Source: a virus
Taxonomy: Duplodnaviria > Heunggongvirae > Uroviricota > Caudoviricetes
IMG/VR virus record: IMGVR_UViG_2671180283_000015
DNA: 5,266 bases
Direction: 5' to 3' (one strand)
Shown here: in pieces, positions 1 through 5,078 of the stretch
How the letters are laid out: each line of letters opens with the position of its first letter
How positions within the stretch are numbered: the stretch's first letter is position 1
Notes under the pieces: model-generated
Seen by the model: only the letters and a program-made list of their open reading frames with translations
The model's database searches: none
Told to the model about the DNA's origin: nothing
Position numbers and translations under genes: made by a program

Positions 1-18
1 TTTTTTTGTCCATAAGAA

Positions 19-38
19 AGCCCCTCCGGAGAGGGGCT
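19..38 (-). terminator. GC-rich hairpin (AGCCCCTC, CGGA loop, GAGGGGCT), possible weak intrinsic terminator
   Basis: An 8-bp perfect stem; on the minus strand it is followed by TTCTTAT, an imperfect U-tract. Confidence 0.3.
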
Positions 39-430
39 GGAGAGTGGCGCTATGTGCCATTGCATGGTGCCGGGTGCCTCCCGGTGAATTCAGTACCAGC
101 ACCTGAATCCGCGATTATCCCATATACCTACTCGCTGATTGCCCCTCCGCACAGGGGGATTCACCATGCCAGTTTCTTTTAACAAACTCCCCGCAAACCA
201 GACAACAGTCAACCGCCTGAATTGTGAAGTATTTAAAAATTTCTCCCGCTAACTGATACCCGGCTAACAGTCTGGCGTTTTCTTTTTCAGCAACGGGAAA
301 GCAGCAACCACCACACCCGCCACCAGCACACCGTCAGCCAGCACTGACATTATCCGGCTGCTGCAATGCCATTCACAAAAACAGTAAGCAATCACTTTTT
401 ACCGTAACCGGTGATAATCCAGATATGTAT

Positions 431-894: not shown

Positions 895-971
895 TGGCGC
901 GCTGTACTGGATTCGAACCAGTGACCGATTGCTTAGAAGGCAATTGCTCTGTCCGGCTGAGCTAACAACGC
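895..971 (-). tRNA. tRNA-Arg (anticodon UCU, reads AGA)
   Basis: Manual fold: acceptor GCGTTGT/ACAGCGC (one G-U pair), D-arm GCTC-AGCCGGACA-GAGC, anticodon stem ATTGC/GCAAT with loop CTTCTAA, T-arm ACTGG-TTCGAAT-CCAGT, encoded CCA. Confidence 0.9.
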
Positions 972-1071: not shown

Positions 1072-1147
1072 TGGTGGCCCTTGCTGGATTTGAACCAGCG
1101 ACCTGGCGATTATGAGTCGCTCGCTCTCACCACTGAGCTAAAGGGCC
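1072..1147 (-). tRNA. tRNA with CAU anticodon, probably tRNA-Ile2 (lysidine, AUA decoder), alternatively tRNA-Met
   Basis: Manual fold: acceptor GGCCCTT/AAGGGCC, D-arm GCTC-AGTGGTGA-GAGC, anticodon loop CTCATAA, T-arm GCTGG-TTCAAAT-CCAGC, encoded CCA. Near-identical to the recalled E. coli ileX sequence. Confidence 0.85.
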
Positions 1148-1196: not shown

Positions 1197-2246
1197 TCAA
1201 ACGATTAAATCCTGAACTTCCCTGACTGTCTGCTCAAAACGTCCGGTCTCCAGTTCAACGCCAATCGCACGACGCCCCAGTGCCATCGCCGCTTTTACCG
1301 TTGAACCCGACCCCATGAAAAAATCTGCAACCAGGTCACCCGGACGACTGCTTGCGCTGATTATCTGCTGCAGCATTTCTGCCGGTTTTTCGCACGGATG
1401 TTTCCCGGGATAGAACTGCACCGGTTTATGCGTCCACACATCGGTATACGGCACCTGCACCGTCACGCCAAAATACCGCCGCAGATGTTTATATTCACTC
1501 AGCAGCTCCGCATACTGCCGGTTCAGTGAGGTATACGTATCCACCAGCTGGTGGTGGAGCTTTTCCAGTTCACCACGCCGATGCTTCTCTTCTGCCACCC
1601 GGGCAAACAGCGCCTGTAATTTCAGATAATCGCTTTCATTCGGTAGCTGCCACTGACTGGCACTGAACCAGTGCGACACCATGTTTTTCTTTCCTGTGGC
1701 ATCTGCAATCTGTTTTGCCGTTATCCCCAGGGCCGCGCGCGCATCACGAAAGTAAGAAATCAGCGGGGCCATCACATGCTGTTTCAGTGCACTGCCCTTC
1801 GCCGCATACCCGGCATCTTTCGGACGATACGGCCCCTGATAATGTTCCGCGAACAGAATGCGCTCTGTGGCGGGGAAATACGCCCGCAGGCTTTCCTTGT
1901 TGCATCCGTTCCAGCGTCCGGACGGCTTCGCCCAGATAATATGGTTCAGCACACTGAAGCGTTCACGCATCATGATTTCGATATCAGATGCCAGGCGATG
2001 ACCACAGAACAGGTAAAGACTTCCGGCAGGTTTCAGCACCCGCCAGAACTGCGCCAGACACTGGTCCAGCCACTTCAGGTAATCATCGTCGCCCTTCCAC
2101 TGGTTATCCCAGCCCTCAGGCTTCACTTTAAAGTACGGCGGGTCCGTGACTATCAGGTCAACAGAATTTTCGGGTAACGACCGGATAAATTCCAGGCAGT
2201 CGGCGTTGATTAACTCACAACTGGATATTTTTACAGTATTAAGCAT
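1197..2246 (-). CDS. Orphan beta-class amino-methyltransferase, probably an N6-adenine DNA methyltransferase
   Basis: The 349-aa product has motif IV DPPY at residues 35-38 and motif I FFMGSGST near residue 310. The IV-before-I order defines the beta class, and DPPY favours N6-adenine. No endonuclease gene is adjacent. The Shine-Dalgarno sequence is weak (AGG about 13 nt upstream). Confidence 0.9.
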   Translation of the reverse strand: MLNTVKISSCELINADCLEFIRSLPENSVDLIVTDPPYFKVKPEGWDNQWKGDDDYLKWLDQCLAQFWRVLKPAGSLYLFCGHRLASDIEIMMRERFSVLNHIIWAKPSGRWNGCNKESLRAYFPATERILFAEHYQGPYRPKDAGYAAKGSALKQHVMAPLISYFRDARAALGITAKQIADATGKKNMVSHWFSASQWQLPNESDYLKLQALFARVAEEKHRRGELEKLHHQLVDTYTSLNRQYAELLSEYKHLRRYFGVTVQVPYTDVWTHKPVQFYPGKHPCEKPAEMLQQIISASSRPGDLVADFFMGSGSTVKAAMALGRRAIGVELETGRFEQTVREVQDLIV

Positions 2247-2278
2247 GGATCATTAAGCCTGTCTCTGATAGGCTCATT

Positions 2279-2297
2279 CTGCTTTTGCGCAAAGCAG
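2279..2297 (-). promoter_or_regulatory. 7-bp stem-loop (CTGCTTT, TGCGC loop, AAAGCAG) 33-50 nt upstream of the methyltransferase start
   Basis: Perfect inverted repeat read from the sequence. It lies in the 5' leader, next to a 4-codon uORF (ATG 2253..2251, TAA 2241..2239) that overlaps the methyltransferase ATG at 2246..2244. Confidence 0.4.
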
Positions 2298-2338
2298 TGG
2301 GCCTGAGGTTTGCTTGTGAACCCAACGCATGAGCAGAT

Positions 2339-2369
2339 GGCTGGTGGGTGCCCCTAACACCCACCAGCC
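2339..2369 (-). repeat. Perfect 12-bp inverted repeat (GGCTGGTGGGTG, 7-nt spacer, CACCCACCAGCC) in the methyltransferase leader
   Basis: Read directly from the sequence at 2339-2350 and 2358-2369. No U-tract on either strand, so it is not a terminator; it is an operator-like palindrome or a stable RNA hairpin. Confidence 0.6.
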
Positions 2370-2382
2370 GCCCATTTACCAC

Positions 2383-2410
2383 AAATAAAAAAGCCTTCAC
2401 TGCGGAAGGC
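2383..2410 (-). terminator. Intrinsic terminator immediately after the 65-aa ORF
   Basis: On the minus strand: GCCTTC (2410..2405), loop CGCAGT, GAAGGC (2398..2393), then TTTTTTATTT (2392..2383). Confidence 0.6.
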
Positions 2411-2594
2411 GTCTGTAACAACCGAACTGATAGTCTGCCAGACCCGCCATAACCAGCTGGGTCAGTATTAACTGGCAGCGTTCGCGTGAAAGGTAAGTAT
2501 TCTGCGCTATCTCCCCGACTGTCGCCGGTTCGGTAACGCTTAATTCATTAAACACCACTCTGGCGGTTTCTGTCATATCCTGCTGTTTTAGCAT
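2397..2594 (-). CDS. Hypothetical 65-aa protein, possibly a small winged-helix-like DNA-binding protein
   Basis: ATG at 2594 is preceded by AAGGGA 8-10 nt upstream. Product MLKQQDMTETARVVFNELSVTEPATVGEIAQNTYLSRERCQLILTQLVMAGLADYQFGCYRRLPQ. The stop codon sits inside the following terminator hairpin. The fold call is pattern-based only. The longer 94-aa version in the ORF track needs a GTG start with no ribosome-binding site. Confidence 0.45.
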   Translation of the reverse strand: MLKQQDMTETARVVFNELSVTEPATVGEIAQNTYLSRERCQLILTQLVMAGLADYQFGCYRRLPQ

Positions 2595-2716
2595 GTCTTT
2601 TTCCCTTTTCCGGTTAACGTGACACACCAATAACTCTTGTCGAAAAAGCCAGCAAGCTGAAAGACAGGTATTCACCGCCACCAGCGCGTTTACTGTACTG
2701 ACGCGATTTCAGTCAT

Positions 2717-2738
2717 AAAAAACCCGCCAGGCGGCGGG
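2717..2738 (-). terminator. Intrinsic terminator (tR'-like) about 45-65 nt downstream of the late promoter start
   Basis: On the minus strand: CCCGCC (2738..2733), loop GCCT, GGCGGG (2728..2723), then TTTTTT (2722..2717). An all-GC 6-bp stem followed by a U-tract. Confidence 0.65.
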
Positions 2739-2820: not shown

Positions 2821-3642
2821 CTATCGCGTTACCCTCTTTAACTGCCGCTCCGCCCATGCCTCTTCAATGTCAAACCGAACCACCAACGTATCGTAAAAGC
2901 GTTTCACTGATTTTTTCCACGTATCAAGCGTGATAGCACTCGTCACTTTGCGTATGGCATTAAATGCCTCCGTTGATGGTAGTCTTTCACAGCCACGACC
3001 ACCACAACGCTGGCAGTCTCTGATAACAGGCATACCACGTTTTACCGACTCTTCACGATGAATGGCGACACCACGCCCACGGCAGTCTTTACAGGCAGTG
3101 GAAATCTCCCCCTTCCCTTTACATTCAGGACAAGAAACTTTCACCACCTCCCGAATTTTTTTCCATTCTTCCCAGTAAGACGGATACACACCTTTCGTAC
3201 ACTTTGCCCATACTGGCGGCTTGCCATCCGGATACTGAACCTTGTTTGTAAAAACCTCGCTTTCAATAAATTTTTTTCCGTGACAGCAGGGGCACTGTTT
3301 TTTGCTCGCCGCGCTACGGGCATAATCTTCAAACGCATACGAAGCCATAATACGCATCACTGCCGGTTTTATTTCTGCCGGGAGTTTTCTTAACGCCGCC
3401 ACGCGATCACACCGACTGAGTGCATATTCTGTCAGCAATTCTGTTGCCCGCTCTCTGTCATTCATACTAATGCCCATTTTCCCAAGGAACGCAGAAAACC
3501 CCATCTCAGCCCGATTCTGTGTCATGCCCTGCGCGGCCATCACATCAGTGATACTCAGCGCATCTTTCGACGTTGAGGCCGATGCATCAGTCAGGCCGGG
3601 GGATTTTGGGGAGTAGTATTTCGGTAAATCTTCCAGTTTCAT
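2821..3642 (-). CDS. Q: Late-gene antiterminator Q (lambda-Q family) with an expanded CxxCxGxG zinc-binding region
   Basis: The 273-aa product shares N-terminal (KYYSPKSP...TDVMAAQGM) and C-terminal (TWKKSVKRFYDTLVV...VTR) blocks with lambda Q as recalled. The centre carries four CxxCxG-type repeats (CPCCHG, CPECKGKG, CKDCRGRG, CQRCGGRG). A pR'-like promoter lies immediately downstream. Confidence 0.85.
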   Translation of the reverse strand: MKLEDLPKYYSPKSPGLTDASASTSKDALSITDVMAAQGMTQNRAEMGFSAFLGKMGISMNDRERATELLTEYALSRCDRVAALRKLPAEIKPAVMRIMASYAFEDYARSAASKKQCPCCHGKKFIESEVFTNKVQYPDGKPPVWAKCTKGVYPSYWEEWKKIREVVKVSCPECKGKGEISTACKDCRGRGVAIHREESVKRGMPVIRDCQRCGGRGCERLPSTEAFNAIRKVTSAITLDTWKKSVKRFYDTLVVRFDIEEAWAERQLKRVTR

Positions 3643-4019: not shown

Positions 4020-5078
4020 TTATGCTTTCCACTTCAGAACACCCGAATTTCTCGCGTGCATTAAAAAACGAATCAGCAACAACAGCTGACTGCCGTGTTT
4101 TTCTTCAAAATCTTTTACTCCGGCATGTAGTTTGTTATGGCATTTACGGCACAACGGAATAACAAACAAATCGTCAGCCTTTGTTCCCATCCCTCCCAGT
4201 CCATGACCAATGATGTGATGCGGATCATCTGCCTGATTACCGCACGTCATGCATTTCTGCGTTTTTACCCAGCGCGTGTATACAGGCATCTCTTCCCGTT
4301 GTGGTTTCTGGCGCTGGAGGTACTGAGCCGGAGACTCCGGATCAACGGCGATGCTTACTAACGTCTTTTCCTGGGGTGGGGGCTGTTGCTGGTGGACGTG
4401 AAGTGGCAGCGCAATATTTTTTGTGCGCTGCTTCAGTATGCTGATGGCTGTCTGTTCTCCCGGTACGATGTCACTCTCACGGTATACGGAGCGGATTTTT
4501 TCCACCGGTAATCCCAGCGAACGACGCGCTACTGCCTCAGGTAGTGCATCCACCACCTGATTGCAGGCCGCCCACCAGGATAATTCGGCCAGCGATAACT
4601 CCCTCTCCTGCGTACCGCTTATTGCGTGACGGATGACGTCAATCATCCAGGCAACCAGATTCTGCTGAGCAAGTTGATCGAGTGATTCTGATGTCTGGTT
4701 GCGCAGCTGGTTGTCACAGTGCCAGCACAACACCATCGCGCCGGTACCGTAACGGTGAATGACTGTTTCGCTGTGATGATAATCGCCGTGTGGCCACTGG
4801 CAGGATTTCACGTGACGTAATAACCAGTCAGACAGTGCACCTGCACCACCTGCTGCACGAATTACCCGCTCATCGCTGAAAAATGGTAGTAATGTTTTAT
4901 CCTCAGCCAACGGCTGGCTAACGGCTGCAACGACGCCGGACGGAAGACTGCGCATGTTTTTGGGTTCCGGTTCCACCAATATTCTGCCGTTATGGAATAC
5001 TGACATTGATTCACGGTCTGGCTTAACGATAACCAGACCGAGTTCCGGTACCAGAACAGGTCGAAGTAATACCCGCAC
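4020..5078 (-). CDS. 352-aa nin-region protein with a C-terminal HNH-like Zn/nuclease motif (DUF968/YdfU-like, tentative)
   Basis: Long ORF with a GTG start at 5078 preceded by GGAGG (5083-5087, 4-nt spacer). The C-terminus reads CMTCGNQADDPHHIIGH...LCRKCHNKLH, a CxxC..HH..CxxCH pattern resembling HNH nucleases; an N-terminal CWHC cluster is also present. Its stop TAA is directly followed by the rusA ATG. The family assignment is from memory of Qin-prophage YdfU and is unverified. Confidence 0.75.
   Translation of the reverse strand: MRVLLRPVLVPELGLVIVKPDRESMSVFHNGRILVEPEPKNMRSLPSGVVAAVSQPLAEDKTLLPFFSDERVIRAAGGAGALSDWLLRHVKSCQWPHGDYHHSETVIHRYGTGAMVLCWHCDNQLRNQTSESLDQLAQQNLVAWMIDVIRHAISGTQERELSLAELSWWAACNQVVDALPEAVARRSLGLPVEKIRSVYRESDIVPGEQTAISILKQRTKNIALPLHVHQQQPPPQEKTLVSIAVDPESPAQYLQRQKPQREEMPVYTRWVKTQKCMTCGNQADDPHHIIGHGLGGMGTKADDLFVIPLCRKCHNKLHAGVKDFEEKHGSQLLLLIRFLMHARNSGVLKWKA

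Follow-up and report, generated by a model that had tools for sequence, protein, structure and literature searches.

This study concerns a small gene in a 5,266-nucleotide stretch of viral DNA (IMG/VR record IMGVR_UViG_2671180283_000015, Caudoviricetes), referred to here in its full length as the window. The gene, a 65-amino-acid open reading frame (ORF) on the minus strand, is a real and conserved prophage gene that is almost always found immediately upstream of an M.EcoGII-type DNA methyltransferase across the Enterobacterales, whatever the type of antiterminator Q encoded before it. Structural modeling predicts that its product is a minimal, canonical winged helix. We give a probability of about 0.5 to the reading that this protein is a dedicated controller of the methyltransferase, and we propose that the two genes form a mobile late-gene cassette, which many lambdoid prophages of Enterobacterales carry directly behind their late-leader terminator. 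The elements of the cassette, all on the minus strand, are as follows.

2715..2738, minus strand: upstream intrinsic terminator (tR'-like), hairpin 2738-2723 with a T tract, from a terminator scan
2631..2656, minus strand: element U, bipartite CTTGCTG-N12-AGAGTTA, 37 nt 5' of the ORF start, from the alignment of loci
2603..2607, minus strand: Shine-Dalgarno-like AAGGG, 8 nt 5' of the ATG, read from the sequence
2397..2594, minus strand: gene of the 65-aa predicted winged-helix protein (phrog_331, the family of phiP27 L23)
2385..2410, minus strand: hairpin 2410-2393 holding the TGA stop, with T tract 2392-2385, terminator-like in the window, from the scan
2247..2384, minus strand: predicted structured RNA leader of the methyltransferase, from a covariance model and folds
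1197..2246, minus strand: beta-class N6-adenine DNA methyltransferase of the M.EcoGII/M.EcoGI family, 349 aa (PF01555, E = 4e-43)

The first-pass annotation of this DNA had singled out a 65-aa ORF with a plausible ribosome-binding site between two terminators, and the ORF list, the terminator scan, and the sequence itself place all of these elements where it had put them. The ORF runs from an ATG at 2594-2592 to a TGA at 2399-2397. The open minus-strand frame in the ORF listing is longer (2397..2681, 94 aa if begun at a GTG), a form that we rejected: the upstream in-frame extension is stopped within 1 to 6 codons in many related loci. The 65-aa start is the conserved one: all related loci keep the ATG and a purine-rich site 5' of it. 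Size alone would not set this ORF apart, as the window holds 50 ORFs of at least 30 aa, and it is conservation that places it beyond chance. The annotation had proposed weighing synonymous against nonsynonymous change and had held that loss of the reading frame in homologous prophages would speak against the gene; both comparisons favor it. In a set of 34 loci from different Enterobacterales species together with three annotated records, the ATG, the frame, and a length of 62 to 67 aa are retained in 33 of 35 loci, the two exceptions being a frame cut short by a premature stop and, in a decayed prophage, one whose N terminus has been replaced, and the ORF is intact in 75 of 76 viral contigs selected solely for carrying the methyltransferase. 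The pairwise ratio of nonsynonymous to synonymous substitution rates (dN/dS) is 0.26 in frame versus 0.94 and 1.66 in the shifted frames; that of the methyltransferase is 0.085. The product matches the phrog_331 profile with an E value of 1.4e-37 (128.7 bits; residues 1 to 64 against profile positions 35 to 98) and has 334 database relatives, and the identical protein occurs on at least 1000 contigs, yet the family is narrow, with 87 clusters among 1.8 billion representatives.

The winged-helix assignment comes from AlphaFold2 (AF2), which, given an alignment of 28 sequences (34 to 94% identity), produced a model with a predicted local distance difference test (pLDDT) score of 92.9, a predicted template modeling (TM) score of 0.80, and the order H1-b1-H2-H3-b2-b3; the lone sequence gave a poor model (pLDDT 52.9). 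Foldseek comparison of the model to PDB recovered the winged helices of OhrR, SarZ, MarR, and IclR at query TM scores of 0.77 to 0.86, and its top matches include dimerization winged helices of O-methyltransferases. The best hit of a sequence search of PDB, at an E value of only 0.058, was likewise the winged helix of an O-methyltransferase, and a fold search of BFVD returned only generic winged-helix matches. In public databases the protein is called "TrmB family transcriptional regulator" or "DprA winged helix domain-containing protein." It falls below the Pfam gathering cut-offs for both domains: it scores 18.0 bits against TrmB (PF01978; cut-off 25.6), which 16 of the 28 homologues match at an E value of 0.1 or less (best 2.4e-4), and 14.4 bits against DprA_WH (PF17782; cut-off 22.9), which 20 of the 28 match (best E value 1.3e-8), some of them with a precomputed PF17782 match. 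The Pfam scan of the window protein and its homologues gave no match to HTH_3 (Xre type), and PADLOC returned nothing meaningful for the ORF. The earlier suggestion of a small winged-helix protein whose fold is not the usual Xre type is thus borne out by the model, the Foldseek matches, and the Pfam profiles alike. The predicted protein shares fold and topology with the MarR, TrmB, and DprA_WH domains of the Pfam HTH clan, with weak to moderate profile matches, but differs from MarR and TrmB in being a bare domain, without the dimerization helices of the former or the sensor domain of the latter; it also falls under the TrmB and DprA_WH cut-offs and belongs to a family that is acidic to neutral (net charge −5 to +3; isoelectric point 4.4 to 9.0). 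Its most conserved parts are the third helix, CQLILTQL, and the N-terminal MLKQxDMT; the third helix is the recognition helix in winged helices. The protein has two cysteines (C40 and C59) and no CxxC motif.

The neighboring methyltransferase carries TDPPYF near its N terminus and FFMGSGST (FxGxG) near its C terminus, the motif order of the beta class, and is 95% identical to the methyltransferase (MTase) of phage 1720a-02, which has been described as "a very similar MTase" to M.EcoGII (PMC5778455). By these comparisons the window enzyme belongs to the M.EcoGII family, and we infer that it methylates adenine independently of sequence context. M.EcoGII itself methylates adenine without sequence specificity; it is silent in the lysogen, and its expression slows growth (PMC5778455). 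A review groups it with Mu Mom as lysogen-silent and toxic (PMC12707154), and it also methylates RNA (PMC7544214). Of 34 genome loci, from hosts that range from Escherichia to Plesiomonas, 32 have a homologue of the methyltransferase (59 to 98% identity) that is encoded on the strand of the ORF and begins 134 to 153 nt 3' of it, and this order and spacing stay fixed while the genes upstream of the pair vary (a PF03589 Q, a PF06530 Q, or the Q of phiP27 with a GIY-YIG gene). No endonuclease occurs in the same gene order across the 34 genome loci. The first-pass annotation had tied the ORF to an orphan methyltransferase lacking an endonuclease, and the synteny proves far stronger than its reader could know. 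The protein of phage phiP27 (L23, the same phrog_331 family) is 100% identical by tblastn, and that phage has the order small ORF, DNA methyltransferase, tRNAs, and stx (the Shiga toxin [Stx] genes), with nothing structural that differs; the window has a different Q and carries a 118-aa ORF (phrog_2873) where the Stx phages carry stx. In PHROGs, phrog_331 is categorized as "unknown function."

The pair also persists at the edges of this distribution. Proteus terrae keeps it at 41% (ORF) and 60% (methyltransferase) identity, two metagenomic contigs (L124 and L128) keep it too, and in Morganella morganii (L122 and L123) the pair and its leader lie in an apparent decayed prophage seen in many genomes, with two unrelated opposite-strand genes between the pair and Q and no phage genes following. 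Being present in so many genomes, the M. morganii pair may be domesticated. In L020, a decayed remnant, the methyltransferase is deleted. The L050 methyltransferase has no ORF upstream; this contig seems to be a chimera or a rearrangement, and its junction, which falls within the first leader helix, P1, contains an N.

The spacer of about 145 nt between the two genes is conserved in length and is more conserved in sequence than the ORF. RNAalifold, like a model refined by hand, gives this leader four helices, which lie in the window as follows.

2375-2329, minus strand: P1, whose upper stem is the palindrome at 2339-2369
2322-2312 with 2258-2247, minus strand: P2, whose 3' strand abuts the AUG
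2304-2298 with 2277-2270, minus strand: P3
2296-2281, minus strand: P4 hairpin

A covariance model trained on 33 leaders finds the element at 92 to 169 bits beside every methyltransferase of the window type, and it also detects four divergent leaders outside its training set (L122, L123, L124, and L128). Across 39 leaders, 94.4% of the cells are paired and 14 pairs (60 cells) have changed on both sides in an alignment that was fitted to the model and hence favors the structure. None of 500 shuffles reached any of these measures, and slid partners were only 30 to 45% paired. A MAFFT alignment gave 92.8% paired and 12 pairs changed on both sides. Separate minimum free energy (MFE) folds of Escherichia coli, Salmonella, and Proteus leaders gave the same architecture, with z-scores of −3.65, −2.33, and −3.58. 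P2 joins GGUCACAAGC to GCUUACUGAUCU, its 3' strand ending at the AUG and covering the 11 to 12 nt before it, and it covaries from AU to GC and from GC to AU; no Shine-Dalgarno sequence of the methyltransferase is visible before the AUG. The 5' flank of the leader, UGUGRAAAUGGGCG, is invariant (UGUGAAAAUGGGCG). A search with 4227 Rfam covariance models gave no minus-strand match in 2247-2396 at an E value of 1 or less, and the sole match in this region was P26 on the plus strand, at chance level (E = 0.078). The covariation and folds together argue that the spacer is a structured RNA in which the methyltransferase start is sequestered, and this leader is probably the most novel element of the locus. 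Two other readings of the region were tried and rejected. A 33-aa ORF from the invariant AUG of P1 (2375-2274) is not a coding candidate, as it shrinks to 7 codons in Salmonella-type and 18 in Proteus-type leaders and its alignment carries single-base indels, and a Q41E change in the third helix of the 65-aa protein does not track loss of the leader, since L128 has E41 and a full leader (130.7 bits).

The palindrome that the first-pass annotation located at 2339-2369 upstream of the methyltransferase is present as placed (arms GGCTGGTGGGTG and CACCCACCAGCC), but its suggested use as the operator of the 65-aa protein is disfavored: five different stem sequences keep the pairing, while the third helix of the protein hardly changes. 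The palindrome is better read as an RNA hairpin, the upper stem of P1, and is unlikely to act as a sequence-specific operator. In E. coli each arm is a Chi octamer, the two being inverted relative to each other. Such octamers (GCTGGTGG) number seven in the 5.3 kb of the window, against 0.2 expected from shuffles, at 320-327(-), 1541-1548(-), 1547-1554(+), 2340-2347(+), 2361-2368(-), 2678-2685(-), and 4388-4395(+), and two pairs of them stand head to head, one in the P1 stem and one (CCACCAGCTGGTGG) within the methyltransferase gene. Over the 34 related loci, Chi occurs 186 times on the strand of late transcription and 46 times on the other (0.88 per kb); in 25 of the 34 there is a Chi no more than 90 nt after the ORF stop, and this holds in the Proteus terrae branch despite replacement of its leader. 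Separately, a near-repeat marks the two ends of the leader (2376-2384 and 2226-2236, minus strand), reading in most loci CUGUGAAAAU just 5' of P1 and ACUGUAAAAAU in codons 4 to 7 of the methyltransferase; the 5' copy of the window deviates (UUGUGGUAAAU). The Proteus terrae branch lacks the leader together with the first ten methyltransferase codons.

The 65-aa gene is itself bounded by hairpins. The upstream one (2738-2723, minus strand) reads CCCGCCGCCTGGCGGG then TTTTTTAT and has six G-C pairs and a seven-T tail. Nucleotide matches to phiP27 and Stx2 phages start at query position 123 to 124, corresponding to about 2738 in the window, and similarity to phages with other Q genes thus begins at this terminator. 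Of 35 loci, 32 have a terminator 62 to 128 nt 5' of the ATG, their stems being unrelated in sequence. The second hairpin (2410-2393, minus strand) reads GCCTTCCGCAGTGAAGGC then TTTTTTAT and holds the TGA stop. Four terminator-like sites fall in 2150-2950, against 1.0 ± 1.0 in shuffles. The annotation's second terminator stands only in part: the hairpin with the stop and the T tract is there in the window, and among 33 distinct loci about 26 keep a hairpin over the stop codon, with compensatory changes, but only 12 have a T-rich tail after it. Only E. coli-like loci make a good terminator of it; in Proteus and Providencia the stop-codon hairpin is absent. Between the upstream terminator and the ORF lies element U. 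Of 128 loci, 108 carry its exact pattern, each of them once and on the same strand, and the most divergent branches (L118 to L123 and L128) are among these. None of the readings that we tried for it, a promoter for sigma-70, sigma-54, or sigma-E or a conserved RNA hairpin, was convincing; the element could serve the cassette as an operator or weak promoter.

In the mechanism that we propose, the cassette is read in the order upstream terminator, element U, winged-helix gene, stop-codon hairpin, leader of about 145 nt, and methyltransferase. In the lysogen, the terminators and the closed start region would hold the enzyme off. The winged-helix protein would be made from the same Q-antiterminated late transcript and would bind a conserved element in cis, thereby setting the timing and amount of a toxic methyltransferase; the candidate target is the DNA of element U or, on the leader RNA, P1 together with the invariant 5' flank. 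Restraint would then come in layers: read-through depends on Q, one or two terminators stand in the way, and the start is closed and has no Shine-Dalgarno sequence. The only protein partner of the enzyme that stays constant is the product of the winged-helix gene. We infer that this protein binds nucleic acid, and it may either activate or repress. A more specific version is doubtful: a multilayer gate in which P1 to P4 form a new cis-regulatory RNA that locks the start lacking a Shine-Dalgarno sequence, and in which the protein opens or closes the gate by binding this RNA or the DNA of element U, in unmodified form or carrying N6-methyladenine (m6A). In that version, the protein would be the counterpart of Mu Com with a winged-helix fold, and it would be what naturally governs the family of methyltransferases that includes the laboratory reagent M.EcoGII.

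Several observations weigh against a dedicated controller. M.EcoGII is active by itself, without a partner, in vitro and in vivo (PMC5778455). A sigma-70 scan found no promoter at element U, and the alignment of loci shows no dyad symmetry in it. The acidic to neutral character of the family is unusual for a free-standing nucleic-acid binder of 65 aa. In Shimwellia blattae (L125 and L126), which is the single clear exception to the pairing, a 70-aa homologue with a strong Shine-Dalgarno sequence stands alone beside an mla-like operon, without a methyltransferase. In the Proteus terrae branch, the leader has been replaced by a plain hairpin terminator and a good Shine-Dalgarno sequence while the pair is retained, and the role of the protein therefore cannot be only that of opening the leader.

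Some of these points would suit a protein-protein role, in which the 65-aa product modulates or inhibits the methyltransferase (its activity, its methylation of RNA, or its action on host DNA) or serves as an accessory counter-defense factor, for example by neutralizing host enzymes that attack heavily m6A-modified DNA. The charge of the family agrees with such a role, as does persistence of the pair where the leader is replaced and in the decayed Morganella prophage; many winged-helix domains are interaction modules, those that dimerize O-methyltransferases being among the top Foldseek matches, and dN of the two genes correlates across loci (r = 0.63), a value confounded by shared phylogeny. 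We nevertheless consider this role somewhat unlikely, given that M.EcoGII requires no partner for activity, that the Shimwellia homologue has no adjacent methyltransferase, and that the invariant surface of the protein is the canonical recognition helix. That orphan copy, fixed in the S. blattae chromosome with its own strong Shine-Dalgarno sequence, is instead what one might expect of a general late transcription factor for other phage or host genes, linked to the methyltransferase merely by a shared cassette, and the public annotation as a TrmB-family regulator points the same way. Such a factor is hard to reconcile with a linkage that is near absolute, in fixed order and spacing, across hosts and Q types, with an element U whose exact pattern is found only once per locus and beside the protein's own gene, or with so narrow a family, and we regard it as quite unlikely.

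The stop-codon hairpin raises another alternative, namely that the ORF works as a translation-coupled attenuator: a ribosome at the stop would block the hairpin and so couple transcription into the methyltransferase leader, or refolding of that leader, to translation. The stop lies inside the hairpin in most distinct loci, changes in the coding 5' arm are matched by changes in the 3' arm, and the spacing to the leader is fixed. Attenuation by itself would not account for the purifying selection on the amino acids, the near-invariant third helix, or the confidently predicted fold; the Proteus and Providencia loci lack the hairpin, and a Q-modified polymerase, which in lambdoid biology reads through terminators, should ignore it. 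We judge attenuation as the sole function improbable, and it can coexist with control by the protein. Finally, short ORFs are common, and a non-functional one might have arisen by chance across conserved non-coding regulatory sequence, but this explanation is effectively excluded by the in-frame dN/dS, the conserved start and stop, the fold, and the near-universal integrity of the frame in contigs chosen for the methyltransferase alone.

The genes of the window are all on the minus strand, and those outside the cassette are listed here.

5078-4020, minus strand: DUF968/HNH protein gene (ORF list and Pfam scan)
4019-3639, minus strand: RusA gene (ORF list and Pfam scan)
2821..3642, minus strand: antiterminator Q, 273 aa, PF03589 (Pfam scan)
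between Q and the 65-aa ORF, minus strand: non-coding late leader
1072-1147, minus strand: tRNA-Met (CAT) by ARAGORN, the equivalent of which is annotated as tRNA-Ile (ileZ) in RefSeq and phiP27
895-971, minus strand: tRNA-Arg (TCT)
787-431, minus strand: 118-aa ORF, phrog_2873, in the place of stx in Stx phages

The best match to an E. coli chromosome covers 98% of the window at 96% identity, with the same order followed by lysis genes, and phiP27 and many Stx2 phages share this layout, with stx after the tRNAs; from the shared layout we read the window as the late regulatory region of a lambdoid prophage. The 273-aa Q is long and joins PF03589 to four zinc-finger repeats of DnaJ type (CxxCxGxG). 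Its stop lies only about 85 nt before the leader terminator, a distance that must make for a very short late leader RNA, and the late promoter of the Q-controlled transcript must lie within 2739-2820; a possible candidate is TTGATT (2815-2810), 16 nt, and TAAATT (2793-2788), which falls below the threshold of the sigma-70 scan. The Pfam scan found no restriction endonuclease partner in the window, the only nuclease-like genes being the usual lambdoid DUF968/HNH and RusA upstream of Q. At the far end of the window (8-198, minus strand) there is a strong match to the prophage small RNA (sRNA) STnc100 (RF02076; 138 bits, against a gathering score of 47). A link between STnc100 and the PasD sRNAs, which occur in the vicinity of Q genes of the PF03589 type, is drawn in a 2026 preprint.

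The existence of the gene is not new, because it has been annotated since phiP27 was sequenced and has been named by pipelines. Literature queries by accession, phage gene name, PHROG identifier, and M.EcoGII context found no paper on the function of the small ORF, its partnership with an M.EcoGII-type enzyme, or the leader RNA. This could matter in two respects. M.EcoGII is a widely used reagent for chromatin and RNA footprinting, and its discoverers noted its silence and harm while leaving the phage's control mechanism unexplained; a winged-helix partner together with, in most branches, a start-hiding leader offers a testable model for how a genome-wide, sequence-independent burst of methylation is timed. 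Further, the cassette stands directly between Q and stx in many Shiga-toxin phages, and its terminators and RNA structure therefore belong to the transcript that delivers the toxin.

Two known systems invite comparison. The controller (C) proteins of restriction-modification (R-M) systems, such as C.PvuII, C.AhdI, and C.Esp1396I, are likewise small proteins with a DNA-binding fold, encoded on the same strand just 5' of a gene of a DNA-modification system that is harmful if mistimed, and they too have a conserved non-coding element before their own gene. The 65-aa protein is nonetheless not one of them: its predicted fold is a winged helix and not the Xre type, its neighbors are Q, the methyltransferase, and tRNAs with no restriction endonuclease, and element U is bipartite and non-palindromic, unlike a C-box. 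The cassette also differs from theirs in lying inside a Q-antiterminated late operon, with a structured RNA leader between the putative regulator and its target. The other system is the com-mom pair of phage Mu. There, too, a protein of about 62 to 65 aa is encoded immediately 5' of a toxic DNA-modification gene on a late transcript, and a stem, immediately preceded by a separate hairpin, closes off the start region of the modification gene, an arrangement that in our case is predicted from P2 covariation and MFE folds. Mu Com is a Cys4 zinc-finger RNA-binding protein that acts where the start region of mom is locked in such a stem, whereas the 65-aa protein is a predicted winged helix without CxxC pairs, and its binding to leader RNA is hypothetical; Mom, moreover, is not a methyltransferase, and one branch of the family studied here (Proteus terrae) keeps the pair without a structured leader. 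We consider it most likely that the 65-aa protein is the controller of the cassette; it would then work in the manner of an R-M controller or of Mu Com while being a member of neither family.

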